Sequence record: OM632671.1
Direction: 5' to 3' (one strand)
DNA length: 64,000 nucleotides
From: Escherichia phage BEU50
Every line of letters starts with the position of its first letter. The stretch's first letter is position 1. The notes beneath the pieces were generated by a model, which saw nothing but the letters and a program-made list of their open reading frames with translations, made no database searches and had not been told where the DNA came from. Below are positions 1 through 29,263 of the stretch, one piece after another. Both the position numbers and the translations under genes were made by a program.

Positions 1-161
1 TTAATCCTGATTTAGTTGTTGTACAGAAAAACTGGACCGAATTTTTATGCTACACTGAAGTGGTTTACGTTTACGAAAAACTCGGCGATGAAATGCCTAT
101 CTATGGTATCTTCCGTGAAATCACTGAAAACGGTACAACTTATTGGAAGGAAACTTACTAA
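1..161 (+). CDS. 3' end of unidentified upstream gene (partial; start lies outside window)
   Basis: Open frame from window edge to TAA at 159-161; stop overlaps next ATG (TAATG). Confidence 0.45.
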
Positions 162-574
162 TGGCTAATAAATTCCGCGTTAACTCATGGTACCAATTTA
201 AAGATAAACGTGCCCAAGAAGAGTTTATTAAAGACCACACTGATAATGGGATTTATGCACGACGTCTTGGCATGGAACCATTTAAAGTATTAGATGTTGA
301 CCATCTTGGTCGTCCTACTAAAATTGTGACATCTACTGGCATGGTTGGATACGCAACAGGCGGTGATATCCTTGATGAAAACTTTATCTGGCTCTCCACG
401 AATGAAGCAGAGTTCTTTGACGAAGTTGGAAATCCATATCAAGAGTCTAAAGAGCAAGATTCTGGTGAACTTGACGAATTGTCTGAATTTCCGGTGATGA
501 CGATTACTATCGAAAATAACGACCAGGCATGGTCTTTGTATCAAATGTTGAAAGCTCACTTTAAGGAACAATAA
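161..574 (+). CDS. hypothetical protein (137 aa)
   Basis: Same frame as ORF-track 143..574 (TTG start); ATG at 161 overlapping upstream stop preferred; no recognisable domain. Confidence 0.55.
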
Positions 575-753
575 TGCCGTTATACGACTATAAATGTCAA
601 TCTGAAGATTGTGGTCATGAATATGAAAAAATTAAAAGAATTTCTGAACGAGAAAACGATGTTTGCCCTGAATGTCATCGTCTGTCTACTCGTCGGGTTT
701 CTGCTCCTAAACATGTGAACGGTGGTTTTTACGACTTACTTAAGAAGGGTTAA
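574..753 (+). CDS. small zinc-ribbon protein, FmdB-like (59 aa)
   Basis: Not in ORF track (<60 aa); [18 protein letters not shown]...VCPECH with two Cys pairs; ATG overlaps preceding stop (TAATG). Confidence 0.5.
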   Translation: MPLYDYKCQSEDCGHEYEKIKRISERENDVCPECHRLSTRRVSAPKHVNGGFYDLLKKG

Positions 754-755
754 TT

Positions 756-1181
756 ATGGCTTTTAAAGGTTTTGAAGTTGGTAAGAAATATCGTATTATC
801 AAAGGACAAGAAGATAATTTCTTGAGAATTCTTAATACGACTGGTAAACGTCTTAATACTAATCTGCATACTACTTTATTGTCCAAAGATTTTATTGTGG
901 AAGAGATGATTGGTTACGGTGTTTCGATGATTGCTGTAGAAGCCGTAGGCGATTATGGCCGAACTATTCATAGTATGCAAGGTGATATTCTGCTTTATGG
1001 TGCAGAATTTAAATTCTTTGAAGAAGTTCCGGAACCAGATACAGCTGTCGATTTCAAAAAAGGCTCTATAGAATTTGTTGATGGTTCGGTGATCGTATCA
1101 GGCGATGTGGTCATTACAGTTAAAAGTGAACAAGGGCGTTTAGCTGCAATTGATGCACTTCAGAAAATTAAATTTAAATAA
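756..1181 (+). CDS. hypothetical protein (141 aa)
   Basis: ORF track; tightly packed upstream of gene 39; no recognisable domain. Confidence 0.55.
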   Translation: MAFKGFEVGKKYRIIKGQEDNFLRILNTTGKRLNTNLHTTLLSKDFIVEEMIGYGVSMIAVEAVGDYGRTIHSMQGDILLYGAEFKFFEEVPEPDTAVDFKKGSIEFVDGSVIVSGDVVITVKSEQGRLAAIDALQKIKFK

Positions 1182-1199
1182 GGGCTTAGGCCCTTTTTG
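1181..1199 (+). terminator. rho-independent terminator candidate
   Basis: AGGGC-TTAG-GCCCT hairpin followed by TTTTT immediately after stop at 1181. Confidence 0.5.
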
Positions 1200-1222
1200 C
1201 TTTAGATTTTGGATGATAGAAT
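1196..1222 (+). promoter_or_regulatory. MotA-type middle promoter candidate for gene 39
   Basis: TTTGCTTTA MotA-box-like element, 12-nt spacer, TAGAAT -10, about 22 nt before ATG 1245. Confidence 0.4.
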
Positions 1223-1244
1223 ACCTTCATAACGAGGAGACAAC

Positions 1245-3065
1245 ATGATTAAAAATGAAATTAAGGTATTGTCAGATGTAGAACATATTAAGAAACGTAG
1301 TGGTATGTATATTGGTTCTTCTGCTAAAGAAGCACATGAGCGTTTTTTGTTTGGTAAATATCAACAAGTTGAATATGTTCCTGGTCTGGTTAAATTAATC
1401 GATGAGATTATTGACAACTCGGTTGATGAAGCTATTCGTACATCATTTAAGTTTGCAAATAAAATTGATGTGCAAATTAAAAATAATCAAGTTTCGGTGG
1501 AAGATAACGGACGTGGTATTCCTCAAGGTTTAGTTACCGACCAAACGGGTGAACAAATTCCTGGGCCTGTAGCAGCCTGGACTATTCCAAAGGCTGGTGG
1601 TAACTTTGGTGATGACTCTGAACGCAAGACTGGTGGTATGAACGGTGTAGGGAGTAGTTTAACTAATATCTTCTCTACGTTGTTTACAGGCATCACGTCA
1701 GATGGCGAAAATGAAATCACTGTTAACTGTTCAAACGGAATGGAAAACAAATCATGGTCTTCTAAGAAATCTAAAGGTAAAGGCACTAAAGTAATCTTCA
1801 CTCCTGATTTCTCTTCATTTGAAGAGCATAATTTATCTCAAATTTATTTAGATATTACTTTAGACAGACTTCAAACATTGGCAGTCGTTTATCCTGATAT
1901 CAAGTTCACATTTAATGGTAAAAAGGTTGATGGTAATTTTAAACGATTTGCTAAACAATTTGGTGAAGATAACATCATTCAAGAAAATGATAAAGTCTCT
2001 ATAGCATTCACAACATCACCAGATGGCTTCCGTCATTTAACTTATGTGAATAACATCCATACTAAAAATGGTGGCCATCATGTTGAATGTGTAATGGATG
2101 ATATCTGTGAACATCTTTTGCCGGGTATTAAAAAGAAATATAAGGGTATTGAAGTCACTAAAGCTCGTGTTAAAGAATGCCTCACAATGTTGATGTTTAT
2201 TAGAGACATGAGCAACATGCGTTTTGATTCTCAGACTAAAGAACGTTTAACGTCAACGTATGGTGATATTCGTAATCATATCCAATTAGATGCTAAGAAA
2301 ATTGCTCAGGCACTTCTTAAAAACGAAGCCTTGATTATGCCTATTGTTGAAGCAGCATTAGCTCGTAAATTGGCAGCAGAAAAGGCTGCAGAAACTAAAG
2401 CAGCTAAAAAGGCGACTAAAGCTAAGGTTCATAAGCATATTAAAGCTAACCAATGTGGTAAAGATGCAGATACGACATTGTTTTTAACAGAAGGTGATTC
2501 GGCAATTGGTTATCTCATTGATGTTCGTGACCGTGAACTACACGGCGGATTCCCATTACGTGGTAAGGTGATGAATAGCTGGGGTATGTCATATGCTGAT
2601 ATGATGAAGAACAAAGAGCTCTTTGATATCTGTGCTATCACAGGTCTTATTCTTGGTGAAAAGGCAGAGAATACGAACTATCGTAATATTGCAATTATGA
2701 CCGATGCCGATCATGACGGTCTTGGAAGTATCTATCCAGCTTTGCTTGCTTTCTTTAGTAATTGGCCTGAATTGTTTGAACAAGGACGTATTCGCTTTGT
2801 TAAAACGCCTGTAATTATTGCACAAATTGGCAAAACTCAAAAATGGTTTTATACTGTAGCTGAGTATGAAGAAGCTAAAGATACACTGCCTAAGCATAGT
2901 ATTCGATACATCAAGGGATTGGGCTCACTTCAGCGAGATGAATATAAAGAAATGATTCAAAACCCTGTGTACGACGTAGTTAAACTTCCTGAAAATTGGA
3001 AAGAACTATTTGAAATGCTCATGGGTAACGACCCTGAACTCCGTAAAGATTGGATGCTAGGATAA
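1245..3065 (+). CDS. 39: DNA topoisomerase II large subunit, ATPase (uninterrupted 606-aa form)
   Basis: GHKL ATPase motifs DEIIDNSVDEA and EDNGRGIP; T-even gp39 family; 606 aa, i.e. not split into 39 and 60. Confidence 0.9.
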   Translation: MIKNEIKVLSDVEHIKKRSGMYIGSSAKEAHERFLFGKYQQVEYVPGLVKLIDEIIDNSVDEAIRTSFKFANKIDVQIKNNQVSVEDNGRGIPQGLVTDQTGEQIPGPVAAWTIPKAGGNFGDDSERKTGGMNGVGSSLTNIFSTLFTGITSDGENEITVNCSNGMENKSWSSKKSKGKGTKVIFTPDFSSFEEHNLSQIYLDITLDRLQTLAVVYPDIKFTFNGKKVDGNFKRFAKQFGEDNIIQENDKVSIAFTTSPDGFRHLTYVNNIHTKNGGHHVECVMDDICEHLLPGIKKKYKGIEVTKARVKECLTMLMFIRDMSNMRFDSQTKERLTSTYGDIRNHIQLDAKKIAQALLKNEALIMPIVEAALARKLAAEKAAETKAAKKATKAKVHKHIKANQCGKDADTTLFLTEGDSAIGYLIDVRDRELHGGFPLRGKVMNSWGMSYADMMKNKELFDICAITGLILGEKAENTNYRNIAIMTDADHDGLGSIYPALLAFFSNWPELFEQGRIRFVKTPVIIAQIGKTQKWFYTVAEYEEAKDTLPKHSIRYIKGLGSLQRDEYKEMIQNPVYDVVKLPENWKELFEMLMGNDPELRKDWMLG

Positions 3066-3862
3066 TGAATTATCGTAAAATTTATGATAAACTTATCGCT
3101 GCGGCTAAAAACCGCAGCATTATTCCTAATTATACTGAGACACATCATATATTGCCAAAATCTATGGGTGGGAGTAATGATAAATCAAATCTAGTTAAAA
3201 TGACCCCTAGAGAGCATTTTATCGCCCATTTATTGCTTTATAAAATTCATAAGAACCGTTCTATGCTTATGGCTATTAGAGCTTTTTACATGGGAGCTAG
3301 AAATTCTAGAGATTATGATTGGCTTAAACAAGAATTCTCTAAAGAGCACTCTAGATTTATGAAAGAATGGATTGCTAAAAACGGCAACCCATTTAAAGGT
3401 AAAAAACATACTAAAGCAACAAGAGAATTAATGTCACATATTGCTTCACAACGTATAGGCGAATTAAATCCATTTTATGGTAAAACTCATACGCAAGAAG
3501 CAATAGATAAAATAATACAGGCCAACAAGTTATCTTGGGAGAATGGGCGAAAAGCACCTGTAAAAACAAAAGAACACCAGGATAAAATAACTAAATCAAG
3601 AATGGAAACATTTAAAACAAAAGGATTTAAACCATACACTCCTAGGTCGGAAGAAACTAAAGCTAAGACTAGAGAGTTGTATAAATCTAAATATGAAAGA
3701 AGGCCTATAAGAATCACAAGTGTAAAAACAGGTGAAACTATTGATTTTAACTATCTTTATGAATTAAGAGAGTATTTAGATATAGGGTCTTCTAATATAT
3801 TGAAAGCATTAAATAATCCTAACAGAACCTGCAAAGGTTATAAAATGTGTTGGATGTCCTAA
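3065..3862 (+). CDS. HNH homing endonuclease (mob-type, free-standing)
   Basis: HNH motif HHILPKSMGGSNDKSNLV; repeated GK-HT helix motifs; ATG at 3065 overlaps gp39 stop; ORF-track start 3050 is TTG. Confidence 0.8.
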   Translation: MNYRKIYDKLIAAAKNRSIIPNYTETHHILPKSMGGSNDKSNLVKMTPREHFIAHLLLYKIHKNRSMLMAIRAFYMGARNSRDYDWLKQEFSKEHSRFMKEWIAKNGNPFKGKKHTKATRELMSHIASQRIGELNPFYGKTHTQEAIDKIIQANKLSWENGRKAPVKTKEHQDKITKSRMETFKTKGFKPYTPRSEETKAKTRELYKSKYERRPIRITSVKTGETIDFNYLYELREYLDIGSSNILKALNNPNRTCKGYKMCWMS

Positions 3863-3890
3863 GCTCCTTCGGGAGCTTCATTTTAATTTT
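3862..3890 (+). terminator. rho-independent terminator candidate
   Basis: AGCTCC-TTCG-GGAGCT hairpin followed by T-rich tract. Confidence 0.55.
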
Positions 3891-3904
3891 AATAAGGCTT
3901 AATT

Positions 3905-5005
3905 ATGAAAGTTATGTTTATCCCATCTCGTGCAGTCCCATTTAATCCTGACCGTGTACAAGGTGGTCTTGAAGCGGTTCATTTGAACGTGTTGAAATAT
4001 TTAGTTTCTATCGGTGCCGATATTGATTATATCGGCTTTGATAATGACACGTTTGGTGACTGGAAAGTTACACACCATCCTGTTGGTCATCTGACTAAAT
4101 TCAGTCTAGGTATGAGTTATACTATGGCTCGTAAGATTGTTGAACTAGCCGGCATCCATGAATACGATTTTGTTGTTACTATGGAACCGACTAAACTAAC
4201 CGTTCAGGCAATTAAAGACGCAGGTCTCTCTAAAGTTCATAAGAATTTTATGGCAACACCATTTGAACCAGTATCTCGTGGCATTGTTCAAATTTGGGAC
4301 CAGACTATTCAAATTCATAAGAATGGCGGTAAGAGTTATGCTCCTACTAAAGCCTTCCGTGAATTTGAACGCAAATATTGTTATATGACTTCAGGTCTGA
4401 CTGACAAAATCGATTATGATTATTGGCGAGCAAATCCGTTGTTTGAAGCCGAAGATTATCCGGTTATTTGTTTGACTGAAAAGCCAGAAGTTCTCCCGGC
4501 AACTGATTTGATTATTAGTGCTCAACGTTATGACACTAAGATGCGTCGCACTGATGTTGCTCTTGAAGCAATTAAAGCACTAGGCGAAAATGGTGTAGGA
4601 TACTGTCCTAGTAAATGGGCACCACCAGCTAAATATCCTGTTATTATTGATGCTCCACACAGTGAAATCATGGAACGTCTTAAAACAGCTAAAGCACTTA
4701 TTAATACGTGTCCTGACACAGGTACGGTAGAGAATAGTTCTATTGAAGCCATCTCTAAAGGTGTCCCTGTAATCCAGTTAGTTTTTAAGGATTATCCTCA
4801 TGCGACATTTGAATACGACCCAGATACTGTGCGTGTAGAAATTGATTCCTCTACTCCTAAGAAAGAAGTAGTTGCGCTTTACACAAAAGCTGTATTAGAA
4901 TTCACTGACACATACGAAGCTCGAGTTAAACGTGCTGAAGCAGTATGGAAGAAGTATAATCGAGATGCAGTTGTTGCGATGTGGGATAAAATCTTCACAG
5001 CGTAA
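3905..5005 (+). CDS. hypothetical protein, possible GT-B-fold glycosyltransferase (366 aa)
   Basis: ORF is solid; function weak: N-terminal MKVMFIPSR...GGLE and C-terminal ENSSIEAISKGVPVI resemble GT4-type motifs. Confidence 0.6.
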   Translation: MKVMFIPSRAVPFNPDRVQGGLEAVHLNVLKYLVSIGADIDYIGFDNDTFGDWKVTHHPVGHLTKFSLGMSYTMARKIVELAGIHEYDFVVTMEPTKLTVQAIKDAGLSKVHKNFMATPFEPVSRGIVQIWDQTIQIHKNGGKSYAPTKAFREFERKYCYMTSGLTDKIDYDYWRANPLFEAEDYPVICLTEKPEVLPATDLIISAQRYDTKMRRTDVALEAIKALGENGVGYCPSKWAPPAKYPVIIDAPHSEIMERLKTAKALINTCPDTGTVENSSIEAISKGVPVIQLVFKDYPHATFEYDPDTVRVEIDSSTPKKEVVALYTKAVLEFTDTYEARVKRAEAVWKKYNRDAVVAMWDKIFTA

Positions 5006-5097
5006 ATCCTGAATAGCCTGAGGCACTATTACACATAAGATGATAGATTATATGGTCTTTAGTAATAGTGCCCTAGGAATCTACTGAAGAGAATATT

Positions 5098-5298
5098 ATG
5101 AGAACATATAACGTGGACTTGGAACTTTTTGATAAAGCAGTGCTCCGGGAATTCCGGCTTATCCAAAGATTTTTTGATATCGAATCAGCAGAGTCCTTTA
5201 AAGAACGCTTTAAAGAAATTCGATATAAAATACAAACCGATACAGCTACTAAAGAAGAACTTCTTGAAGTAGCAGAAATTTTTAAACGTAACTTGTGA
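5098..5298 (+). CDS. hypothetical protein (66 aa)
   Basis: ORF track; immediately upstream of rIIA. Confidence 0.45.
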   Translation: MRTYNVDLELFDKAVLREFRLIQRFFDIESAESFKERFKEIRYKIQTDTATKEELLEVAEIFKRNL

Positions 5299-5310
5299 TG
5301 AGAGAAAAAC

Positions 5311-7368
5311 ATGATTATCGAAACGGCTAAAGAAACGATTATTGGTTCTGGTGGTAAGAGCACAGCATTCACTATTCAAGGCAATAGCAAAGTTTATAAG
5401 ATTTTGTCTAATGACCTTTATACAAACAAAGAATTGGCTTGTGTACGTGAATTAATCACAAACTGTATCGATGGACAAATTCTTAATGGTTGCACTGATA
5501 AGTTTATTGTTCAGGCTCCAGGTCGTTTAGACCCACGTTTTGTAGTTCGAGACTTTGGTCCTGGTATGAGTGATTTCACCATTCGAGGTAATGACGAAGA
5601 GCCAGGAATCTATAACTCATATTTTGCTTCAACTAAAACATCGAGTAATGATTTCATTGGTGGATTCGGACTCGGCTCTAAAGCTCCATTAGCATATACT
5701 GATACGTTTAACATTACTTCTTATCATAATGGTGAAGTTCGTGGTTATGTAATTTATCAAGATGACAGTGGTCCACAAATTAAGCCAACCTTTGTAGATA
5801 AGATGGGCCCTGATGACCGTACGGGTGTAGAAGTAGTTGTGCCTGTTAACCCGGAAGATTTTGAAAAGTTCGCATCTGAAATTGCGTATGTTATGCGTCC
5901 TCTCGGCGATATTGCAGAAGTTCGTGGTGTTAAAGATATCAAATACTTCCCGGAATTCGATGATGTTTATTTAGCCAAGGAAGCTCCATGGGGTGAACGT
6001 GGTAATATCATGGCTGTTTATGGTGGTATTGTATATCCAATCGGAAGTGTTATTAAAGAACAAACATGGATGATGACGCGATGCACTACAGCTTATATCA
6101 AATTCCCTATGGGTGAACTAGATGTAGCCCCGTCTCGTGAAGCATTGTCATTTGATAAACGTACAGTAGCAAATATTCATAAACGTGTTGCAGAAATTGA
6201 TGCAAAATTATTTGCTGAAGATTCTAAGAAATGGATTGATTGTGAATATCCACGTCATGTATTCCGTGAAATCGATTCTCTTGGTTACTCTGCTCGTAAA
6301 TACATGGAAAAAGCCGGTTCTAATATTGAATCACTGAAATATTCTAAAGAACAACTAACTTATTCTGAGTTGTACAAACGTTTTAAAATGGGACCTGAAT
6401 GGTGCAACCTTGGCGTTGTATATGATATCGTTTCAGATCCACGACTTCGTCGTATTCGTGAAAGCGGAAGCTCGTCTGCAACTATTTCAATTAATAGCCT
6501 GCTAGGTATTAGTCGTAAGCATATTGATATTGTTATTGACGATGTGAAAGGCCGCGTACCAATGATGCGTGCTCTGAACGATGCTTTGACTTCCACCGAT
6601 GCATCAACACTCGTTGATAAGGTTCCTTCCGGACGGGGTAGTAGCGTATTATTCATTAACCCGGAAGATGAAGTTGCAATGAAACTTCTGGAACGATTAA
6701 AGGTTATTTTCGCTGGTGATAGCCTTAAATTTTATAAGACCTCTGAAATTCTTGCATTAGTTAAACCATGGATTGAAGTTAAAGAACGTTCATCGCAGCC
6801 TCGTCCTAAATCCCCAAGTGCTCATCGGTTCTTTAAGAATGAAAACGATGTTTGGGTATCAGAAGATCTCTTTATTCCGGCCGGTAAAGCTGATGAGATT
6901 CAAGGTTATGTTGTAATTCGTAATCGTTCTAACGCTGAATGTCTTGACGCAGATAAAGGTTGGTTGAACTATGATTCTAATTTCTTGACTCGTATTGCTG
7001 ATTTGTCAGGTATTAAAGAGTTCACTGTAGTCCGTCCACAGATTGCTAAGAAAGTTCGTAAACTTGGTGAAGTAGAATGCTTGTTCGAAAAATCAATTAA
7101 TGACTATATTACGCTAATTGATAAAGTGGATTATGATGAGTATGTATCACCAAGTCGTAGAGCACAGCCTTATTTGAATCATATTACTCGTAACGAAGAG
7201 CTTAACTTCCTTAGTAAGTATTTTAGCTCTAAGAACAAAGAAATCAGTAAAGACTTTGCAAAACTCTCAACAGTAAATAATCGCTGGGGATGGAATCGAT
7301 TCGCAGGTGCTGATAACAGAGACCTGAACAGGAAGTTAGAATTGTGCTTAAAGAGGACTCTTTTGTAG
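5311..7368 (+). CDS. rIIA: rIIA membrane-associated protein with GHKL ATPase domain
   Basis: ELITNCIDG and RDFGPGM GHKL boxes; N-terminus typical of T-even rIIA; 685 aa (T4 rIIA recalled as about 725 aa). Confidence 0.85.
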
Positions 7369-7619
7369 ACCCAGAAATTTTCTACGGTTTGCGTGCCCGT
7401 GAAATTGAAATTGAGCCACAACCTACAGTTAAAATTGAAGGTGGTCAACACCTGAACGTTAACGTTCTGCGTCGTGAAACTCTGGAAGATGCAGTTAAGC
7501 ATCCGGAAAAATATCCGCAATTGACTATCCGTGTATCCGGTTATGCAGTTCGCTTTAACTCTCTGACTCCGGAACAGCAGCGCGACGTTATCGCTCGTAC
7601 CTTTACCGAGAGTTTGTAA
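7344..7619 (+). CDS. autonomous glycyl radical cofactor-like protein (GrcA/YfiD family)
   Basis: C-terminal glycyl radical motif [29 protein letters not shown]; no in-frame ATG (GTG at 7344); 3' half is GC-rich with host-like codons. Confidence 0.8.
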
Positions 7620-7840
7620 TGGCAAAGATAATTATTGAAGGTTCTGAAGATGTGCTAAATGCTTTCGCCGAGTGGTTTAGTAATTCAGGTGAACAACAAT
7701 TTAATGAAGCGTGGAATATGGGTGATATTGATGGAATTTATCCTACGACAGAAATTTCTGTTCAGGGATATGGCATTCATGAACCTATTCGTTTAGTTGA
7801 ATACGATTTATGTACTGGCGAGGAAGTCAAATATGATTGA
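7619..7840 (+). CDS. hypothetical protein (73 aa)
   Basis: ORF track; ATG overlaps preceding stop. Confidence 0.5.
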   Translation: MAKIIIEGSEDVLNAFAEWFSNSGEQQFNEAWNMGDIDGIYPTTEISVQGYGIHEPIRLVEYDLCTGEEVKYD

Positions 7841-13549: not shown

Positions 13550-13780
13550 GTGAGTGAGTCGAAGAGAATCAATATGAAACGATTAGTATTAGAAGTTAGT
13601 CCGCTTTTTGGTGAATTGGCTATAGAAAAAGTAAATAACATGTATCGTTTGACGCAAGAAGACGATATGCTATATTTTACGCCTAGTGAAATCATTCATT
13701 TAACCCAAATTGAATATCCTTATACTGATAAAATAGTAAGTATCAATGATGAGCACAAAATTCATTGCTCGTTTGATTGA
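13550..13780 (+). CDS. hypothetical protein (76 aa, GTG start)
   Basis: ORF track; AAGGAG upstream. Confidence 0.45.
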   Translation: MSESKRINMKRLVLEVSPLFGELAIEKVNNMYRLTQEDDMLYFTPSEIIHLTQIEYPYTDKIVSINDEHKIHCSFD

Positions 13781-13870
13781 AGTTGAAGCCCAAATTGCAG
13801 AACACACCAAATTGTTAAAAGCTCTTAATGCAAAAGCAAATGGTTTACGTAATGCTATTGAGGTATTGAA

Positions 13871-14185
13871 ATGAAAAAGCGTCTATTAGAAGACATTGCA
13901 GCTTCAAGTAATTCCAGTTTAATTAAAATTATTATGGCCGGTGAAGAAGACGATCTGGAAATGCGTGGAAAGATTTATGGTTGTGATGATTATAGCAGCC
14001 CTATTAATTGGGATTCTGTAATGGTCATGGTTGAACGTCGCGAAAGGGCTTCTAAAAACGTTCCTAATTGCCCTGAATGTGGAACTGAACAGGTGCAATT
14101 AGTCCATTGGCAGACTAATAATCTTCGTTATAAATGTCGCCATTGTAAACACCGATTTGACCGAGAAGAAAATGACAAAGCGTAA
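13871..14185 (+). CDS. zinc-ribbon hypothetical protein (104 aa)
   Basis: CPECGTEQ ... CRHCKHRF four-Cys pattern. Confidence 0.55.
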
Positions 14186-14414
14186 AGAATATATGGAGAC
14201 CGCCGAAAAGGCAGTCCGTGAATTAGCAATAGCTTATTATAATGAACACGGTAAATTTCCTGATAGATACAGCGTGCTTAAATCTGCTTTAACTCGTTCA
14301 TATAAAAATATGCTATCAGAAGTAAGTGATATTATATACAAACATAAAGAACAAACGGGCCAAAGTCTTGATTACGACGAGACTTTTAAACAAGTACTAG
14401 GAATTAAGGAATAA
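14172..14414 (+). CDS. hypothetical protein
   Basis: ORF-track frame 14157..14414 (TTG) trimmed to first ATG. Confidence 0.4.
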
Positions 14415-14415
14415 T

Positions 14416-14679
14416 ATGTTTAAAGTATATGGTTATGATAGCAACATCCATAAATGTGTGTATTGCGATAATGCAAAACGTCTTTTGACCGTGAAGAAAC
14501 AGCCGTTTGAATTTATCAACATTATGCCGGAAAAAGGTGTTTTTGATGATGAGAAAATCGCTGAGCTTCTGACTAAACTAGGTCGTGATACTCAAATCGG
14601 CTTAACAATGCCTCAGGTATTTGCTCCTGATGGAAGTCATATTGGTGGATTTGACCAATTGCGGGAATACTTTAAATGA
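14416..14679 (+). CDS. nrdC: glutaredoxin/thioredoxin (T4 NrdC type)
   Basis: 87 aa, CVYC redox motif; matches recalled T4 NrdC. Confidence 0.9.
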   Translation: MFKVYGYDSNIHKCVYCDNAKRLLTVKKQPFEFINIMPEKGVFDDEKIAELLTKLGRDTQIGLTMPQVFAPDGSHIGGFDQLREYFK

Positions 14680-14891
14680 TTCTCGAAGGAACTGATTATA
14701 TCCATGATTACCGCGGAAGCGCGGTATATGTAGGTGATGAAGTTGCAGTTTACTACGGGTATGGAACTTTGATGACAGCCAAGGTTATTCAAATTAAAAA
14801 TAATCGTGCTAAACTCGAAGTTTATTATTCTAACGGCGAAAAGTCTATTTCTAAGTGGAAATACGGCGATTGTATGGTCAAACTGGGGTAA
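14676..14891 (+). CDS. hypothetical protein (71 aa)
   Basis: ORF track; overlaps nrdC stop. Confidence 0.5.
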   Translation: MILEGTDYIHDYRGSAVYVGDEVAVYYGYGTLMTAKVIQIKNNRAKLEVYYSNGEKSISKWKYGDCMVKLG

Positions 14892-14893
14892 AT

Positions 14894-15064
14894 ATGATTT
14901 ACGATATTAGTGCAGCAAGAGCTCCATCAATGGTTGCTATTCCAGCTGAAGAATTAGATCGTCTTCATAAAATTGAAGAACTTCTGTGGGAAATTGAATC
15001 TGATTTGCCATCAGGATTAGAATCCTGGATTGATTATGAAGAACTTAATAAGCTTCGGGGTTAA
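14894..15064 (+). CDS. hypothetical protein (56 aa)
   Basis: ORF-track frame trimmed to ATG 14894 following upstream stop. Confidence 0.4.
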   Translation: MIYDISAARAPSMVAIPAEELDRLHKIEELLWEIESDLPSGLESWIDYEELNKLRG

Positions 15065-15186
15065 ACCCTGGTGGGCGGCTAGATGGGAAACTGTAGAGCC
15101 AGAGCCGGAAGAACCGGTTTACACTGATGAAGAAACAGTATATAATGAACCAACGATAAATGACTTAATTGATATGGAGATGGGAC

Positions 15187-15672
15187 ATGATTACAGTAGA
15201 TAAGTGGTTTAGAATTAATCGTGTTGATACAGGGCTATGTAATTACTGGCCGGAACTTAGTGCAGGTACTGTCTTTAAAGTTCGTGAACTTGCAAAAGAA
15301 TGTGAAGATGATATAGAACCTGATACTGGAATTATTGAAATTGAACTTTCTGATGGAAAGATTATTAACATCTATGATAAGCCAATTACGTATTGGTGCT
15401 TGTGGAATACTGAATCCGTTGAAAATGGCGAAATTGAAGAAGTTGTAGAGAGAACTAGCCAAGATGCTCAGAAGCCTAAAGCCGCTTTTCAAGGTGAACG
15501 TATTTCATACGCATTAGCTAAATTAGCTGCACAAGAAAATAACGATGGTTATGAAGGAAATTTAATGCAAGCTGCCGCAGAGTACATTGAATGGCTTGAA
15601 ACTCAAATTTCTTTTTCTGACCAAATGATTCGGCAATATAAGCGATTGCATCAAATGTTTTACAATACTTGA
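15187..15672 (+). CDS. pin: hypothetical protein, possibly protease inhibitor Pin (161 aa)
   Basis: ORF-track frame trimmed to first ATG gives 161 aa, the T4 Pin length; position between nrdC and gene 49. Confidence 0.45.
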   Translation: MITVDKWFRINRVDTGLCNYWPELSAGTVFKVRELAKECEDDIEPDTGIIEIELSDGKIINIYDKPITYWCLWNTESVENGEIEEVVERTSQDAQKPKAAFQGERISYALAKLAAQENNDGYEGNLMQAAAEYIEWLETQISFSDQMIRQYKRLHQMFYNT

Positions 15673-15708
15673 AAAAACTCAAAATTCTTTTTCTGACAAG
15701 GCATTTTA

Positions 15709-15885
15709 ATGAAAACCGAATTGGTTTATACTGAAAAGTTAAATGGCGGTAAGGTTTGGAAACTTTTTATTAAAGGACATTCTACGGACCCTCATATGAC
15801 CACTTGCGTAGGAACCTATTCTCGTCCTACTAAAAAGATGATTCGACAGTATAAACGATTGCATCGAATGTTTTACAATACTTAA
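15709..15885 (+). CDS. small hypothetical protein (58 aa) sharing its C-terminus with upstream gene
   Basis: Not in ORF track; ends ...MIRQYKRLHRMFYNT, near-duplicate of the last 15 aa of the 15187..15672 product. Confidence 0.35.
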   Translation: MKTELVYTEKLNGGKVWKLFIKGHSTDPHMTTCVGTYSRPTKKMIRQYKRLHRMFYNT

Positions 15886-15925
15886 ATAATAAATACCCTT
15901 ATCTATTTAAGGTAAGGGTTTTATT

Positions 15926-16399
15926 ATGTTATTGACTGGCAAATTATACAAAGAAGAAAAACAAAAATTTTATAATGTACAAAACGGTAAATGCTTAATT
16001 TGCCAACGAGAACTAAATCCTGATGTTCAAGCTAATCACCTTGACCATGACCATGAATTAAATGGACCAAAAGCAGGAAAGGTACGTGGATTGCTTTGTA
16101 ATCTCTGCAATGCTGCAGAAGGTCAAATGAAGCACAAATTTAATCGTTCTGGCTTAAAGGGTCAAGGTGTTGATTATCTTGAATGGTTAGAAAATTTACT
16201 TACTTATTTAAAATCCGATTACACCCAAAATAATATTCACCCTAACTTTGTTGGAGATAAATCAAAGGAATTTTCTCGTTTAGGAAAAGAGGAAATGATG
16301 GCCGAGATGCTTCAAAGTGGATTTGAATATAATGAATCTGACACCAAAACACAATTAATAGCTTCATTTAAGAAGCAGCTTAGAAAGAGTTTAAAATGA
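15926..16399 (+). CDS. 49: endonuclease VII (Holliday junction resolvase)
   Basis: 157 aa; zinc-binding CLIC...C..C; matches T4 gp49 family. Confidence 0.88.
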   Translation: MLLTGKLYKEEKQKFYNVQNGKCLICQRELNPDVQANHLDHDHELNGPKAGKVRGLLCNLCNAAEGQMKHKFNRSGLKGQGVDYLEWLENLLTYLKSDYTQNNIHPNFVGDKSKEFSRLGKEEMMAEMLQSGFEYNESDTKTQLIASFKKQLRKSLK

Positions 16400-17217
16400 A
16401 TGTAGTATATAAACTATCATTTATTAATAGAATTAATGCTAAAACCCCACCATATTATTACATTGGAAGTAAAACCAATTGCACTTTTGATGGAACGAAT
16501 ATTATTGATAAAAATGGTAAATTTTATTATTCGTCTTCGTCATCTTCTGAATTTCAAAAAGCCTTATTGAAAGAAACGCCGAAAGTTGAAATATTATATT
16601 TTCAATTAGTCGGAGATGAACAAATAACTAGCATTGAAGCTGAATTTCAAAAGAATATAGAAAAAGATGTATGGAATAAAGAGTATTTTAATTTAGCATA
16701 TGCTGATGGCAAATTTACGACATATGGTATTTCTCCTTCTAAAGAAACTAGAGAAAAGCAATCAATAACCATGATTAAAAGAAATCGTAATAAAGGCAAA
16801 AATCATGGATTTTATGGAAAGCATCATACTAATTTAGCTAGAAAGAAAATATCAGAAGCTTCTAAAAAATACTGGAAAGAAAATCCACATCGTGGATTTT
16901 CGCATACAAAGGAAGCTAAAATTAAAATTGGAATTTCATCTTCTATCAGGCATAAAGGAAGTGGAAATCCGATGTATGGTGTAAAACCTTGGAAAACTCC
17001 GAGCGCAATTAAATCTGGTACTTGTATATTATGGTTAAAATACGCAGAAATTTTATATGATTATTTAAGTCCAGATTTTAAAAGTAAATCATCTATTTTT
17101 GCGGATTTAAACTTACCGAAATTTAGAATTGATAATTTCATCAAAAGGTTTAAAATGGGTTGGAACCCATATTTAGACGAAGAATTTCAAAAGGATAAAT
17201 TAGAATTATGTCTTTAG
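16396..17217 (+). CDS. GIY-YIG homing endonuclease (seg-like, free-standing)
   Basis: N-terminal VYKL...PYYYIGS GIY-YIG module; downstream basic helix repeats; start and stop overlap neighbouring genes. Confidence 0.75.
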   Translation: MNVVYKLSFINRINAKTPPYYYIGSKTNCTFDGTNIIDKNGKFYYSSSSSSEFQKALLKETPKVEILYFQLVGDEQITSIEAEFQKNIEKDVWNKEYFNLAYADGKFTTYGISPSKETREKQSITMIKRNRNKGKNHGFYGKHHTNLARKKISEASKKYWKENPHRGFSHTKEAKIKIGISSSIRHKGSGNPMYGVKPWKTPSAIKSGTCILWLKYAEILYDYLSPDFKSKSSIFADLNLPKFRIDNFIKRFKMGWNPYLDEEFQKDKLELCL

Positions 17218-18205
17218 AAAAAGATGTTTTAAATTTTATTTCAAATAAAGATAAAGAATTAAATACAGAAAACGCCAACAAAGATTCTCGCGTCTTTCCA
17301 ACAAAAAGAGATTTAATGGCCGGTATTGTTTCTAAACATATCGCTTGTCGTATTCTTCCAAGTCATATTGTAAATGCCCATAATGTTGGATTAATTCATT
17401 TTCATGATTTAGATTACAGTATATCATTGCCTTTTACTAATTGCTGTTTAGTAGATTTAAAAGGAATGCTTGAGAACGGGTTTAAGCTCGGTAATGCACA
17501 GATTGAAACTCCTAAATCAATCGGTGTTGCTACTGCAATTATGGCACAAATTACTGCACAGGTTGCTTCTCACCAATATGGCGGAACTACATTTGCTAAT
17601 GTCGATAAAGTACTTTCTCCTTATGTTAAACGCACCTATGCAAAACATATCGAAGACGCAGAAAAATGGCAAATCGCCGATGCGTTAAATTATGCTCAAT
17701 CTAAAACAGAAAAAGACGTATACGATGCATTCCAAGCTTATGAATATGAAGTAAATACTCTCTTTAGTTCAAACGGACAGACTCCTTTTGTAACAATTAC
17801 ATTTGGTACAGGAACTGACTGGACTGAACGAATGATTCAGAAAGCAATTCTGAAAAATCGTATTAAAGGTCTTGGTCGTGATGGGATAACTCCTATTTTC
17901 CCTAAGCTTGTTATGTTTGTTGAAGAAGGTGTTAATCTTTATAAAGACGATCCGAACTATGATATTAAGCAGCTTGCTCTAGAGTGTGCAAGCAAAAGAA
18001 TGTATCCTGATATTATTTCAGCTAAGAACAATAAAGCTATCACTGGTTCATCTGTTCCTGTTTCTCCAATGGGTTGCCGTAGTTTCTTGGGCGTATGGAA
18101 AGATTCGACTGGTAATGAAATTCTTGATGGACGTAATAATCTTGGCGTTGTAACACTGAATCTTCCTCGCATCGCGTTAGATTCTTATATTGGAACACAG
18201 TTCAA
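17208..18205 (+). pseudogene. nrdD: anaerobic ribonucleotide reductase NrdD, 5' portion only (truncated near codon 333)
   Basis: N-terminal two-thirds of class III RNR; frame then runs into reverse complement of gp37 start; no glycyl radical C-terminus. Confidence 0.8.
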
Positions 18206-18340
18206 TCCTGAGTCATCTTTTGTGAAAATTGTTTTATCTTTTAAGTTTATAGCCAATTCACCTTCGGCTAATACTGAAGCAGCAGGACGTTGACCTGCAG
18301 TTTTGCTTCTTTTAAATTGTATTTGTTTTAAAGTAGCCAT
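18206..18340 (-). pseudogene. 37: distal long tail fibre gp37, N-terminal 44-codon fragment
   Basis: Minus-strand [45 protein letters not shown] matches T4 gp37 N-terminus, then diverges and stops within 6 codons. Confidence 0.7.
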
Positions 18341-18348
18341 AAGTCCTC

Positions 18349-18999
18349 TTAATAATAGCCGAAATCTTGAACAGAATCCTTAATTACGATTTGGTCAAAT
18401 CGTGGAACGTGTGAAGGTTGAGATGCAGGATTCTGTGAAAAAAGGTTTGGCGCAGTTAAATTTCCTGTCATAGTGTCTCCAGAGCGTAATACCCTAGAGT
18501 TTGCATTTGCTGTAACAGTATTTATTGCTCCATCAACATAATCTTTACGAGTAGCATCTGATGCTGCGGAAGGAGTAGATGTAACAGTTACAGATGGAGC
18601 CGTTACAGCTTTGGTAAATGTTGTCAAACCTTCTGGCGTAATAGTAATTTGTCCAGTAGTGATTTCACTACCTGCTGGTCTAAAACTAATACCGCCAGAA
18701 GAGCCACCAACTACAAGAGTATTACCAGTGCCGCCACCAGAACGAATTCGGATGGGGGTTTCATTATTACTTAATTGAAGATAACTATTTACACCATAAT
18801 TAATAGTAACTGGGCCTGTGTAAGTACCACCAGTAGATTTAGAAACGAAATCATTATCAGCTGCCTGTGGTTTATTATATTCTGAATATATTTTAAATGA
18901 TTTGTAGAGTACATCGTCACCGGCTGAATTCAACGGAAAATTTCCTTGATGCCAAATGACAGATCCACCTACAGTTGAACCTCCTTTTAAATCAGCCAT
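18349..18999 (-). CDS. 36: long tail fibre distal connector gp36
   Basis: 216 aa; position between gp35 and gp37 fragment; T-even gp36 family. Confidence 0.85.
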
Positions 19000-19022
19000 A
19001 GTATGCCCATTTATTTTAATAT

Positions 19023-19030
19023 TATTTATA
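19023..19030 (-). promoter_or_regulatory. late promoter TATAAATA (gene 36)
   Basis: TATTTATA on plus strand, 24 nt upstream of gp36 ATG on minus strand. Confidence 0.5.
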
Positions 19031-19055
19031 AAGAAAAAAGGAGCCCGGCGGCTCC
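19031..19055 (-). terminator. rho-independent terminator candidate after gene 35
   Basis: GGAGCC-CGGC-GGCTCC hairpin followed on minus strand by TTTTTTCTT. Confidence 0.55.
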
Positions 19056-19061
19056 CTCAGT

Positions 19062-20177
19062 TTAAACTTCTCTAAATTCCTGTCCAAACACTTTACCAGT
19101 TTTAGACGATGCCTGTGTAGGAAGTACCATTATATCTGGAGGTGAAGCCGATTCACAGACATAATTAACGCGAATACCATTGACGCCAAATTCGGCAGGT
19201 TTTGAAATGCCGCCATTTCTTGATACTTCAGAAAAGCTTAAATTTCTCATACCGCCTTGACCCGCTTGGGCGGTTCTCTGTGTGTATATCGTAAATCCTA
19301 CTGCATTTTCAGGAACAACTACATAATCTTCTTTTAATTCCCAAGACCCAGCTTGCCCAGTAAACTCAGCTTGGGTCGAGGAAATATATCCATTTGATGC
19401 ATCATAAAAACGAATAGATATATTTGCAGTTCCAAGATCAAGTAAATCAGCATCAGCATATAGTTGTGCTTTAAGATAAAGAACATCACCAGGAATTAAA
19501 TTGTAGTCAGAAAGTTTACTTATAGCAGCTGAAGTTGGTAAACGCGCAATTTCATTATTAGTTCCACCAACCGCAGACATAAATTGCTCAACGCTTTCGT
19601 ATGTTCTTTTAGGAAATCCTGTAGCTCCGACGTCTTCTAAACTATCAAATACAACATCTAAAATAGTTTGATAATCATCTGTGCTTTTTCTATTACTTAG
19701 TTTAACATGCTCTAATGCAATAGCTCTTTTAGAAGAAGTATAAAAAGCAGCATATGACACGTCAAATCTTGACAATACTGAATCTGATGGAAAAACTGAA
19801 GTTCCTGCTCCCCTTAACCAAGATACCACTTCAGGAGGAAAATTAACCTTTCCGCTAGTTAATATAGCAACAAGTCTATTGTTTGACAAAGAATTCATGA
19901 AACTGACAAAAGTGGTAGATGTTGTATTGTTTGAAGCAGAAAAAGCATATGACTTACTATCAACTAATGCTCCCGTAGAAGGGTCAAAAACTCTTAAATG
20001 AAGACCTGCACTAAATGTTTGATTTCCAACGGGATTATCCTGAAATTTAACATATGGTCCCGCAGTAGAAAGCGGGCAAGAACCCGCTATGCTTATTTTA
20101 TATCTTACTGAATTGCTTTCCGATAAAAATGGCGTTTGGACATATCCTTGTCCAAACTCTGCCATAAATTTTTCCAT
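19062..20177 (-). CDS. 35: long tail fibre hinge connector gp35
   Basis: 371 aa; synteny between gp34 and gp36. Confidence 0.85.
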   Translation of the reverse strand: MEKFMAEFGQGYVQTPFLSESNSVRYKISIAGSCPLSTAGPYVKFQDNPVGNQTFSAGLHLRVFDPSTGALVDSKSYAFSASNNTTSTTFVSFMNSLSNNRLVAILTSGKVNFPPEVVSWLRGAGTSVFPSDSVLSRFDVSYAAFYTSSKRAIALEHVKLSNRKSTDDYQTILDVVFDSLEDVGATGFPKRTYESVEQFMSAVGGTNNEIARLPTSAAISKLSDYNLIPGDVLYLKAQLYADADLLDLGTANISIRFYDASNGYISSTQAEFTGQAGSWELKEDYVVVPENAVGFTIYTQRTAQAGQGGMRNLSFSEVSRNGGISKPAEFGVNGIRVNYVCESASPPDIMVLPTQASSKTGKVFGQEFREV

Positions 20178-20185
20178 AATACCTC

Positions 20186-23100
20186 TTATTCAACCCATTC
20201 AAATTTAACAGTTTTATTCACTGGGTCAGGAATAATGCGAACATTACCAATTCGTAAGAAATCACGAATAGTAAGATTACCTATTATTCCATTATCAGAT
20301 GGGATTGCTCCTATATCCGAAGGTTGAGGAGGATTACCTCCATCGAATACCTGAACAAAACTTGACCAAGAGTTTTTGGTTTTCTGCCATGTACGTGTCC
20401 AGCGAGTGGTACGTGCTTCTGGGGTCGTTGGATAAGTAATCCAATCTTGGTAAAGTGAATCAAGTGTGTTACCAAACTGAGTCAATGTACCAGGAGATTT
20501 AACTTCTTCACCGCGTTCTAAATATGGAAGTCCAGTCACTTCATTAGTTTTTTCAACCATTTTAAAATAACCCGGGAACTGGTTATAAGTGGCTGAATCA
20601 TTAATATCGATTGACCAGAATCCTACAGTATCAGATGTTGGCGCACGGGTATATAAATCAGATGTTTTAACACCTTGAGAACGAATTCTCGAGTTAACAG
20701 TTAAACCGCCTGAACTTATAGTAGCACCTTTTGCAATGATTAAGCTTTCACCAATCGTTACTTGGCCAGATGCATTATTAATAGATAAAGGACGTAATCC
20801 ATTAAATCCGCCAGTTTGATCACCCGATGCAGTAAGCATAAAATTCGTTACTGACCCATCATTGCGAACAATGAAACCATAATTTCCGTTAATAGCACGG
20901 AAAGCATTTGCGCTTCGAGAAATAATTTCACCAGTTGCAGTGACTGAATTACCAAATGTTGCTACACCATTTGCATTCAATGTTCCTGAAGCATTAACAT
21001 TTATCGGTGTTACTGTACCGTTGATATTAAATGTTATATTTCCAGCTTTATTACGCTGAGAATAAAAATGACTAGACGTTTCATCACTAACTTCAAATAC
21101 GGTAGAACGTGTTGTGTCTGATTCCCCACTAAATTGATTTCCCCACACTCTGACTGTCATCGTTTGAGCCGGGTTTGTTCCAGTTTGAGGTCCTTTCTCA
21201 AAAATCAATCGAGTTGCCGTTCCAGTATTAGAAATAGTTAATGTACTATTTGCTGAAACTGATCCACCGAATGTAGCAGTACTAGATGATACAAGAGGGG
21301 CACTCAGATTCGTTTGTTGGGTTAAGGTTAGTGAACCATTAACTGTTTGTGCAATGTCCCTACGAATGAACTGGAGCGAATCTAGACCATCTAATAAATT
21401 ACTATCTACAGCTTTTGCTTTTAATGGCAAATAATTTGCTAATACGCGATTTAATTCATATGGTGATACTGCATAACCATTTTTCTCATATGATTCTAAT
21501 GGTTGTGTTGAACCTACCGTATCATTACCAACGAATGTAATTGAACCAGATGAAGTTTTAACAAACCCTCTTATCAGAGTAGTTGCTGCCCAAGTTGGTT
21601 CACTCTGCACAATCCATTTTAAATTTTTTGGAGATACAGCAGTATTTGCTGATGTTCCAGTCACAGTTTCAGACTGAGTTGCAACTTTAATAACACCTTC
21701 CTGTGCTTCAGTAGATTTAGTACCTAAAAGCTTTTTAGGAGTTATTAAAACATTATCTAATGTTCCTGCAGCAGCTTCAACTTGTGTAGCTACACGAAGT
21801 GTACCACGCTGTGTCTCATTTGCTTCAAGAATATTAAGTGTATAATGGTCCCAGAGAGTTCCTGATTCAACTAATCCAGATAGAGCAACAACAGAAGTAC
21901 GATCAGTACTATTAAATCTAGTTTTAATTTTTAATGGTGTAGAGATGCGAGTATCGTCGACGCCTGCGTCGAATTCAACTTGCGTAGCAATTTCAGCTAT
22001 ACCACTTAAACTTTCAGTTGCTCTACGGTCATTTAAAGTTTTAGGAGTGACTGCACGAGTATAGTCAGTTCCTGTGTTAACTTCACTTTGCGTAGCAATT
22101 TCAATTAAACCAATTCTTCCATCAGTTGATGTCTTTTTATGTAACGTTTCTGGCGTTACAACCGCATTTGCCCATCCTTCTTGGCTTTGTCCAGCAATTA
22201 CTTCACTTTCAACTGCTAAAATTACTGCGCCTTGTTGCGTTGGAGTAGCTTTATACTGATCCAAAGCTTTAGGTGAAACAACTAAATTATTAGTGTTTTT
22301 ATTATAAACATTCGTACCATTTAATTCACGGCTAGAAGCTGGAGTAGCTCCTGCAGTAGATACATAAGTTACAATACCAGATAATGATTCAGAACCTTGG
22401 CGAGCTTGAAGCTTTTTAGGAGTGATGATTGTAGTATCATCAGTACCTGTATTAGTTTCCTGCTGCGTAGCAATTTCAGCGACACCTCTACGAGTTTCTG
22501 TAGCAGTTCTTTCATTCAGCTTTTTAGGAGTGATGATAAGGTCATCTGCAAAAGAGAATGTGGTGTTCTGATTCACTTGAGCAGTAGTTGCTATTCTTGC
22601 AATACCTCTGCGAGTTTCTGTAGCAGTACGATTAGCTAACGTTTCTGGAGTAATTGCTAATTCTTTTTGTGGAGAATTTTCTAAATCAGCATTTGCTTGA
22701 GCTTGCGTAGCTAAAGCAATTACGCCTAATCTTGCTCTAGTAGAAGCATTTAAAGAGTCTACTCTTTCTACAGTTGGAACGTTTTGCTGTACAACCCAGC
22801 ATTTTCCATCAGAATCTTCTATATAAGCAAGTTGTAAAACTGGAACATAATTAGTTTCACCGTTAAAAACTAATTCTTGAACTGTTACCCATTCAGCTTC
22901 AGGCGGATATTCTGAACGTTTTGGGAATTGCAGCAATTGAACTGAGGAAGCAATTTTATCTTCACCTGCAGCTTTGATTTTAACTGTTTGTCCTTTTCTC
23001 ATGTAATTCATGGAAATTTTAACAGTATCACCAACAGAAATATCAGTCGGAAGCTGAAGTTCAATTGTTTGGGTTGTTCCATTATTCGCGCCAAATACCA

Positions 23101-24055: not shown

Positions 24056-24089
24056 TCTCCCGGGCTCCTATTGTGTTTTCAATAATAAG

Positions 24090-24097
24090 TATTTATA
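24090..24097 (-). promoter_or_regulatory. late promoter TATAAATA (gene 34)
   Basis: TATTTATA on plus strand, about 35 nt upstream of gp34 ATG. Confidence 0.55.
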
Positions 24098-24100
24098 CTT

Positions 24101-24130
24101 GTTTACTTTAAGATTTAGATAGTATATAAT
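24101..24130 (+). promoter_or_regulatory. T4-type early promoter candidate (rnh)
   Basis: GTTTAC 24101-24106, TATAAT 24125-24130. Confidence 0.5.
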
Positions 24131-24159
24131 AGAAATCTCACTAATTGAACGAGGTTCAT

Positions 24160-25077: not shown

Positions 25078-25085
25078 GGTGAATA

Positions 25086-25355
25086 ATGGCTAAAAAAGAA
25101 ATGGTTGAATTTGATGAAGCTATCCATGGCGAAGACTTGGCTAAATTTATTAAAGAAGCATCTGATCATAAACTGAAAATTTCCGGTTATAATGAACTGA
25201 TTAAAGATATTCGAATTCGTGCTAAAGATGAACTTGGCGTTGATGGTAAGATGTTTAATCGTCTATTAGCTTTGTATCATAAAGATAACCGTGATGTGTT
25301 TGAAGCTGAAACTGAAGAGGTAGTTGAACTTTATGACACAGTTTTCTCTAAATGA
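25086..25355 (+). CDS. dsbA: double-stranded DNA binding protein DsbA
   Basis: 89 aa; size and position between rnh and gene 33. Confidence 0.7.
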   Translation: MAKKEMVEFDEAIHGEDLAKFIKEASDHKLKISGYNELIKDIRIRAKDELGVDGKMFNRLLALYHKDNRDVFEAETEEVVELYDTVFSK

Positions 25356-25671: not shown

Positions 25672-25727
25672 TTAAACTCCGCATGCCTGCTGGTGGTGAA
25701 AGATACATTGATGGTAAATCAGTTTAG
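25668..25727 (+). pseudogene. 59: helicase loader gp59, first 19 codons only
   Basis: [19 protein letters not shown] matches gp59 N-terminus, then TAG; ATG overlaps gp33 stop. Confidence 0.6.
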
Positions 25728-29236: not shown

Positions 29237-29263
29237 TGGTTATACTTTTAAGAGGATGCACAA

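Follow-up and report, generated by a model that had tools for sequence, protein, structure and literature searches.

The stretch of DNA analysed here, referred to below as the window, encompasses 64,000 nt of Escherichia phage BEU50 (OM632671.1) and harbors a short open reading frame, opened by GTG, that encodes a glycyl radical domain (Table 1). By its sequence and by the order of the genes that follow it, this ORF is the orthologue of vs.6 of phage T4, which is found in the T4 RefSeq record at 63557-63919 as a 120-aa protein (NP_049730) with the product name 'autonomous glycyl radical cofactor GrcA'. Megablast places positions 7348-8200 of the window on hundreds of Tequatrovirus genomes at 97-98% identity, where the gene is annotated either with this same product name or as vs.6. 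Over positions 7348-7619 the window is identical to T4 at 264 of 272 nt and to phage e11/2 at 267 of 272. The native gene order on the 3' side is also kept, running through vs.5, vs.4, vs.3, regB, vs.1, vs and tk.4 onwards to tk. The locus carries little weight as a discovery: nothing about the gene, the family it belongs to or its biochemical role is novel, all three being established and annotated already. Only two points are mildly new: the T-even alleles have in common a sharply bounded patch of apparent host origin, and the window does not form a collinear genome.

Table 1. Features of the ORF and its surroundings, followed by the blocks of the window as mapped on Mosigvirus KAW3E185 and T4
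Feature	Position in window	Strand	Remarks
Truncated rIIA	5311..7368	+	685 aa vs 737 aa in phage a20; cut 178 nt before the stop
ORF (91 aa, GTG start)	7344..7619	+	Chimeric frame: 4 nt derived from rIIA, then vs.6 codons 31-120
Junction J1	7344..7352	.	rIIA homology to 7346 (7352 in some relatives); vs.6 homology from 7348
Native vs.6 sequence (T4 Y06I, phage GrcA)	7348..7619	+	Codons 31-120 and stop; 97-98.5% identity to Tequatrovirus vs.6
Patch attributed to E. coli grcA	7435..7619	+	Encodes GrcA residues 68-127, most of the docking domain (61-127)
Three clustered synonymous differences from E. coli	7520..7526	+	CAA TTG ACT vs E. coli CAG CTG ACC
Radical-glycine codon GGT	7539..7541	+	In motif RVSGYAV
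Last four codons	7605..7616	+	ACC GAG AGT TTG vs E. coli ACT GAA AGC CTG
vs.5, native downstream neighbour	7619..7840	+	Start overlaps the vs.6 stop (TAATG)
Block	1..7346		T4 ~7 to 0.2 kb; gene 39 to rIIA'
Block	7348..~13764		T4 63.8 to 57.6 kb; vs.6' to mobD.1
Block	~13764..18206		T4 49.0 kb downwards; nrdC to nrdD'
Block	18206..25726		T4 156.7 to 149.1 kb; gene 37 (5' 135 nt), 36, 35, 34, rnh, dsbA, 33, gene 59 (58 nt)
Block	25727..64000		T4 143.1 kb downwards; 28444-64000 collinear with KAW3E185 at 97.7%

The original prediction had called a GrcA/YfiD-type glycyl radical domain, and the profile searches bear this out. The ORF matches the Pfam family Gly_radical (PF01228) with an E value of 1.5e-18 and a score of 67.7 bits (cut-off 22.2), and it contains the radical glycine. 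In the alignment with PDB entry 6OWR this glycine is G66 of the ORF, G95 of the 120-aa Y06I of T4 and G102 of E. coli GrcA. The top PDB match is E. coli YfiD itself (6OWR, E 5.9e-40), and the next in rank is the C-terminus of E. coli PflB (1H16, E 2.1e-26). The PflB domain (residues 698-759) has the fold-defining sequence and the RVSGYAV motif in common with the ORF, but forms the tail of a 759-aa enzyme, whereas the vs.6 product is an autonomous protein. Among the NCBIfam profiles GrcA (TIGR04365) is the best match at 146.8 bits, which does not reach the curated equivalog cut-off of 170 bits; the full-length vs.6 of e11/2 likewise has this profile as its top match and likewise stays below the cut-off, at 153.3 bits. 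Both proteins fall short because their N-terminal half is divergent. With the equivalog cut-off missed and an N-terminal half of phage type, the accurate label for the ORF is 'phage GrcA-like spare part (vs.6 family)'.

E. coli GrcA, also named YfiD, is a protein of 127 aa, against 120 aa for its phage counterpart, and is built in two parts. Residues 61-127 form a structured docking domain, and residues 1-60 are disordered and help in binding and activation. The full-length phage protein is 30-35% identical to GrcA over its N-terminal half, and half of this N-terminal half is absent from the window copy. The same two-part architecture is found in the other phage GrcA homologues (PHROG 1209), which occur in T4-like phages of Klebsiella, Enterobacter and Aeromonas, in T5-like phages and in jumbo phages. 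A sensitive search recovered vs.6 homologues from 1,539 phage records of the T4-like, T5-like and jumbo kinds. The homologues outside the T-even group share with vs.6 a phage-type N-terminus (MKAYQIL...GTIY...), but their 3' halves are only 63-84% identical to E. coli grcA at the nucleotide level and bear no recent host patch. Within the T4-like group, vs.6 was listed by Nolan et al. 2006 among the ORFs that are conserved in all of the genomes compared and that have a Gly_radical match.

The closest point of comparison is T4 vs.6, which has the downstream neighbours, the radical-glycine motif, the E. coli-like 3' patch and the 5' boundary of this patch in common with the window. The window copy differs from it by three clustered synonymous changes and by two residues, having R where T4 has H (GLRARE for GLHARE and LRRETL for LRHETL). 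It also lacks codons 1-30 and, upstream, both vs.7 and vs.8, with rIIA joined on in their place. The best match to the 272 nt comes from vB_EcoM_Maryam, a 113-kb record termed 'complete', which has four mismatches and retains the native vs.8-vs.7-vs.6 context, and for these reasons was rejected as the source of the window sequence.

The loss at the 5' end is abrupt. The orthologues are 120 aa in length, and the 91-aa ORF is without the 30 native N-terminal residues, so that it covers only profile positions 31-121 of 121 in PHROG 1209 (E 6e-48). The upstream vs.8/vs.7 synteny is absent, with a truncated rIIA directly preceding codon 31 of vs.6 instead. Over positions 1-7346 the window follows the cef-39-rIIA region of Mosigvirus a20 at 98.5% identity. 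The truncated rIIA, whose PHROG 612 match ends at profile position 672 of 725, enters vs.6 out of frame and acquires 7 foreign codons before it stops. At junction J1 the two sources overlap by at most 5 nt, TTAAA at 7348-7352. Along with its first 30 codons and vs.7, the window copy is without the native ribosome-binding site, and a promoter and terminator scan of positions 6800-8500 gave counts close to those expected from shuffled sequence, with no evident native-type signal for the ORF. Both the GTG at 7344 and the AGGAAG that precedes it by 8 nt lie within rIIA coding sequence. On these positions the GTG would be a chance start, and the beginning of the ORF an artefact of the junction.

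J1 could nevertheless be real, in which case illegitimate recombination would have fused rIIA' to 'vs.6 and a 91-aa GrcA would be made from GTG 7344, working less efficiently. The TTAAA microhomology is compatible with such an event, the AGGAAG resembles a Shine-Dalgarno sequence and could drive translation, and the product need not be inert. In YfiD deprived of residues 1-60, activation falls about 4-fold but is not abolished, and the protein, whose binding is too weak to measure, is able to catalyse when it does bind. By this analogy the 91-aa product, if made from the chance start, is probably impaired and not dead. The surroundings of the junction speak against the event itself. Megablast found no phage records that span J1, the junction 30-mer was not found in IMG/VR or in JGI metagenome contigs, and the exact 685-aa rIIA' fusion product is not on record in public assemblies. 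In the public places that encode an identical vs.5 product, vs.6 is full length, at 120 aa, in 8/8, with vs.7 upstream in 7/8.

The junction at 7346 is, moreover, one of several in the window. Further abrupt breaks are found at 18206 and at 25726/25727, and near 13764 the sequence jumps with respect to T4; the resulting order of blocks is neither collinear with the T4 map nor a rotation of it. As a result of the breaks, nrdD is left with 332 native residues, gene 37 is cut as well, and genes 59, segG, 32, frd and td are deleted, among them gene 32, which T4 cannot do without. Junctions J2 and J3 are blunt, with an overlap of 0-1 nt, as compared with the overlap at J1. Measured against these breaks, genuine recombination at J1 is unlikely. 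A chimeric or concatenated assembly, or some other non-biological construction, is probably by far the better account of the arrangement than a viable rearranged phage. Since the window does not represent a phage genome in collinear order, neither the starts of ORFs nor the neighbours of genes should be taken as given close to 7346, 13764, 18206 and 25726.

The 3' part of the gene is intact and has a composition of its own. Its last 60 residues had been described as almost identical to GrcA and are in fact 100% identical to residues 68-127 of the E. coli protein. The identity extends to the DNA: over these 60 codons the window agrees with E. coli grcA at 173 of 180 nt (96%), all 7 differences being synonymous, and T4 agrees at 177 of 180. 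In phage e11/2, codons -60 to -5 are identical to E. coli throughout (168/168 nt), the differences being confined to the last four codons. BLASTN of window positions 7435-7619 gives 96.2% identity to chromosomal grcA of E. coli, with a match in each of the 5,426 complete genomes (5,426/5,426). The host-like composition that had been predicted is also evident. A 177-nt section of the patch has a GC content of 48.6%, compared with 36.8% for the 64-kb window, a value reached by only 0.2% of the in-frame 177-nt windows taken from the 47 long ORFs of the window. CTG and CCG are strongly over-represented against the phage background, with CTG accounting for 4 of 6 leucine codons (background 6%) and CCG for 3 of 3 proline codons (background 14%).

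A protein as conserved as GrcA might be thought to impose such a match without any transfer, through convergent codon selection or through constraint on protein or RNA, and the 60 C-terminal residues are indeed identical in several phage lineages. Those lineages, however, provide an internal control. The phage alleles L020 and L022 encode the identical 60 residues with only 82.8% nucleotide identity and 31 synonymous differences, a dS of about 2, as compared with 2-9 differences from E. coli in the T-even alleles. Because of this control, the match of 96-100% in the patch can be said to go beyond protein constraint, under which about 83% would be expected. The original prediction had named, as the result that would count against it, a nucleotide identity no higher than the protein requires; the values found are 96-98%, against 82.8% in L020 and L022. 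Together with the skewed leucine codons and the sharpness of the 5' breakpoint (p = 2e-26), this gives constraint without transfer a vanishingly small probability. The availability of alleles with the same protein and saturated synonymous sites makes the case of some use beyond this locus, as a transfer that comes with its own control.

Other signs of chimeric assembly in the window raise the question of whether the E. coli-like patch could be host reads that contaminated the phage assembly. The patch lies in frame in vs.6, ends in phage-specific last codons with an overlapping vs.5 start, and recurs in the reference sequence of T4 as well as in hundreds of phages that were sequenced independently. 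There is next to no chance that contamination is its source. The cluster of three synonymous changes at 7520-7526 is a natural allele that recurs in metagenome contig L180, and Maryam has one of the three changes. Each of the last four codons differs from its E. coli counterpart by one synonymous change; they lie just 5' of the vs.5 start and are variable among the T-even alleles.

The donor of the patch is, on sequence grounds, E. coli or Shigella, or else a bacterium very closely related to them. When the same 168 nt of e11/2 are compared with grcA of other bacteria, a cryptic Escherichia lineage shares 166 nt, Citrobacter 155 and Klebsiella 145. This graded identity of the enterobacterial genes, together with the codon usage of the patch, points to a probable host-to-phage direction. 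The gene pflB, whose product has a related C-terminus, was considered as a donor and rejected. PflB-type C-termini (L077) are only 74% identical to grcA in nucleotides and 82% in amino acids over the last 60 codons, and the low nucleotide value identifies grcA, not pflB, as the donor.

The boundary of the patch on its 5' side is sharp. Identity to E. coli collapses immediately 5' of the residues EGGQHLNV, with 77 of 153 nt identical in the N half and 176 of 180 in the C half (Fisher p = 2e-26). The N half, at about 47-50% nucleotide identity to E. coli, is still distantly homologous to the N-terminus of GrcA, with 35% identity over 40 residues and a pairwise E value of 5e-6. Its nearest relatives are phage sequences: it is 68% identical in amino acids and 74% in nucleotides to the phage allele L015, compared with 30% in amino acids to E. 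coli. In the C half this ranking is reversed, with 98% nucleotide identity to E. coli and 79-82% to L015, L020 and L023, the phage alleles that come nearest. As judged from these comparisons, the 3' ~185 nt alone appear to be host-derived, and the 5' half appears to be an old phage-type GrcA N-terminus. The gene thereby offers a clean quantitative case in which sequence passed from host to phage in only one half of an auxiliary gene, the functional one. No description of a mosaic of phage vs.6 and host grcA was found in the searchable literature.

Nineteen T-even alleles were compared. They come from the window, T4, e11/2, Mosigvirus KAW3E185 and Maryam, and from six IMG/VR contigs and eight public assemblies. 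The 5' breakpoint is identical in 19/19. Within the patch the alleles carry only 0-4 scattered differences from E. coli, and the variation is found mainly in the last four codons. At the 3' end of the patch, identity to E. coli decays differently between alleles. The original prediction had inferred a recent capture from a host, and of this the host origin stands for the 3' ~185 nt (96-98% identity) but the recent date does not. A capture of host grcA, or of a fragment of it, by BEU50 itself in the recent past would explain the very high nucleotide identity and the E. coli-like codons of the window. It would leave unexplained a patch with an equal 5' boundary in the four named relatives and 14 more alleles, the hundreds of records at 90-99% identity, and a 5' half of phage type with 30-35% amino acid identity to the GrcA N-terminus. 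It is also at odds with the allele itself, the last 213 nt of which recur exactly in the ENA metagenome contig L180 (in native context, with a full-length 120-aa gene). Because the 5' breakpoint is common to all 19 T-even alleles, the patch is not a private capture by BEU50, and a recent event in this phage is very unlikely.

The best reading of the aligned alleles is therefore a single host-to-phage replacement, which would have taken place in a common ancestor of the alleles examined from Tequatrovirus and Mosigvirus. Between T4 and KAW3E185 the N half has a dS of 0.39 and the C half one of 0.24, on counts that are too small to date the patch against the split between Tequatrovirus and Mosigvirus. 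Host patches in other phage lineages were also sought, and none of about 45 other alleles was more than 88% identical to any of 81 bacterial grcA genes from 80 species, which is a weak negative.

How the replacement came about can be suggested only tentatively. It is possible, though we consider it doubtful, that the docking half of the gene, some 170-185 nt from EGGQHLNV to the last few codons, was overwritten by gene conversion from the E. coli chromosome, keeping the protein residue-perfect for host pyruvate formate-lyase (PFL) and its activating enzyme (PFL-AE). The patch spans most of the YfiD docking domain, and the divergent N half corresponds to the disordered residues 1-60. The recipient of the proposed conversion is a strictly lytic phage that degrades the DNA of its host. 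Should such replacements turn out to be both recurrent and adaptive, vs.6 would neatly illustrate how a phage can renew an auxiliary gene from the allele of its host.

The biochemical role of the T4 protein goes back to Wagner et al. 2001, and, in the passages of PMC8683613 and PMC13450708 that deal with it, Y06I is stated to reconstitute oxygen-cleaved PFL. As outlined in these passages, PFL-AE puts the radical on the spare part, and the activated protein then joins the oxygen-cleaved PFL, restoring activity (PMC8683613, PMC13450708). Rescue of oxygen-damaged PFL, the function that had been proposed for the window ORF, thus appears to be the right one, and according to the relevant part of PMC8683613 has been known by experiment for T4 Y06I since 2001. 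By extension from the T4 orthologue, the conserved glycine, which is G95 in the full 120 aa, would receive its radical from the host PFL-AE. Thereupon the C-terminal domain would replace the C-terminal piece that the host PFL loses when oxygen cleaves it at Gly734, and the conversion of pyruvate to acetyl-CoA and formate would thereby be restored in infected cells under micro-aerobic conditions. Replacement of the docking domain by that of grcA would leave the docking part residue-for-residue identical to the spare part of the host.

The protein had further been proposed to serve the phage's own NrdD, and it could in principle act as a spare part for this enzyme, either instead of or besides the host PFL. 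Both are glycyl radical proteins, both are encoded by the same phages, and a role in nucleotide metabolism was put forward as speculation by Nolan et al. 2006. A BLASTP comparison with the C-terminus of T-even NrdD, however, returns an E value of 1.7, and the glycine loops do not align, whereas the docking domain shows 100% identity to that of GrcA and an E value of 2e-26 against the PflB C-terminus. NrdD is also activated by an enzyme other than that of PFL, namely NrdG. The NrdD proposal is thus left without support from the sequence, and we regard it as highly improbable. Rescue of the host PFL is the function retained here. It is very probable, taking the evidence as a whole, that positions 7348-7619 are the 3' three-quarters of vs.6, encoding a PFL spare part with an ancestral grcA patch and joined to rIIA at a likely chimeric junction.

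The wider family may be of interest to enzymologists. In the passages of PMC8683613 and PMC13450708 concerned with spare parts, the proteins validated so far are E. coli YfiD and T4 Y06I only. Since validation in this literature is limited to proteins that serve PFL, the diversity of phage GrcA, with its T4-like, T5-like and jumbo representatives, could be worth mining.

The window (1-64000) is composed of T-even genome blocks that have been pieced together, with breaks at 7346/7348, ~13762-13766, 18206, and 25726/25727. The T-even blocks all run in the same orientation, but they are not arranged collinearly with the T4 map. The closest relatives also vary by block: 1-7346 and 28444-64000 are nearest to Mosigvirus, whereas 7348 to ~28388 is nearest to Tequatrovirus. 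As written, the window cannot be a viable genome because gene 32, which is essential in T4, is deleted. Relative to T4, this deletion removes most of gene 59, segG, gene 32, frd.1-3, frd, td, and the start of nrdA.2. The features associated with the breaks are listed in the table, together with vs.4.

Features at the breaks of the window and downstream of vs.6
Feature	Window position	Strand	Description
Truncated rIIA	5311-7368	+	685 aa, vs 737 aa in phage a20
vs.4	7833-8099	+	two places downstream of vs.6
Break	~13762-13766		jump on T4 map, mobD.1 (57.6 kb) to nrdC.3/nrdC.2 (49.0 kb)
Truncated nrdD (anaerobic ribonucleotide reductase)	17208-18293	+	~332 native residues left
Clean deletion vs T4	25669-25811		T4 coordinates 143082-149137 lost

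At the first break, rIIA is cut 178 nt upstream of its own stop codon, and its final 7 codons are provided by vs.6, read out of frame; the exact truncated product has no entry in the public gene index. The breaks at 18206 and 25726/25727 are both intragenic and blunt. At the former (region 18206-18348), nrdD reads on into the first 135 nt of the tail-fibre gene 37 in antisense orientation, and the remainder of gene 37 is missing. Reduced to ~332 native residues, nrdD is thus left without its own glycyl-radical C-terminus. The jump between mobD.1 and nrdC.3/nrdC.2 skips mobD and nrdC.4 to nrdC.11 relative to T4. This part of the genome is variable, and the jump could be natural variation there or one more artificial join. 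A further segment of ~0.8 kb (3057-3850) is missing in Mosigvirus KAW3E185 and found in phage a20, where its counterpart is annotated as a homing endonuclease adjoining the topoisomerase large-subunit gene. Its presence or absence is ordinary mobile-element variation.

At window 7605-7621, each of the last four codons of vs.6, the phage GrcA gene, differs synonymously from E. coli grcA, and these codons are variable among T-even alleles. The vs.5 start overlaps the end of vs.6 (TAATG), and its ribosome-binding site would be expected at these codons. The differences suggest selection for vs.5 translation or, alternatively, the 3' end of the tract that we read as replaced by E. coli grcA. In relatives with an identical context, vs.4 is a member of the Pfam family Acb2_Tad1_hairpin (PF24729). 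Acb2 and Tad1 are both known for an anti-defence role as cyclic-nucleotide sponges.

GrcA-like spare-part genes with the phage-type N-terminus are widespread beyond the T4-like phages, and include loci in T5-like genomes of ~104-122 kb (L050-L076 and L088) and in jumbo contigs of ~350 kb (L033, L035, and L036). Their GenBank labels are often "pyruvate formate-lyase" or even "ribonucleotide reductase subunit". The "complete genome" record of the Tequatrovirus vB_EcoM_Maryam (PQ799574.1, L171) has a length of only 113 kb, compared with ~165-170 kb in its relatives; the assembly is probably incomplete or concatenated. In one T4-like contig, the vs.6 homologue (L019:1501-1851) harbors a 1-nt insertion near its 3' end, which brings the stop three residues early.
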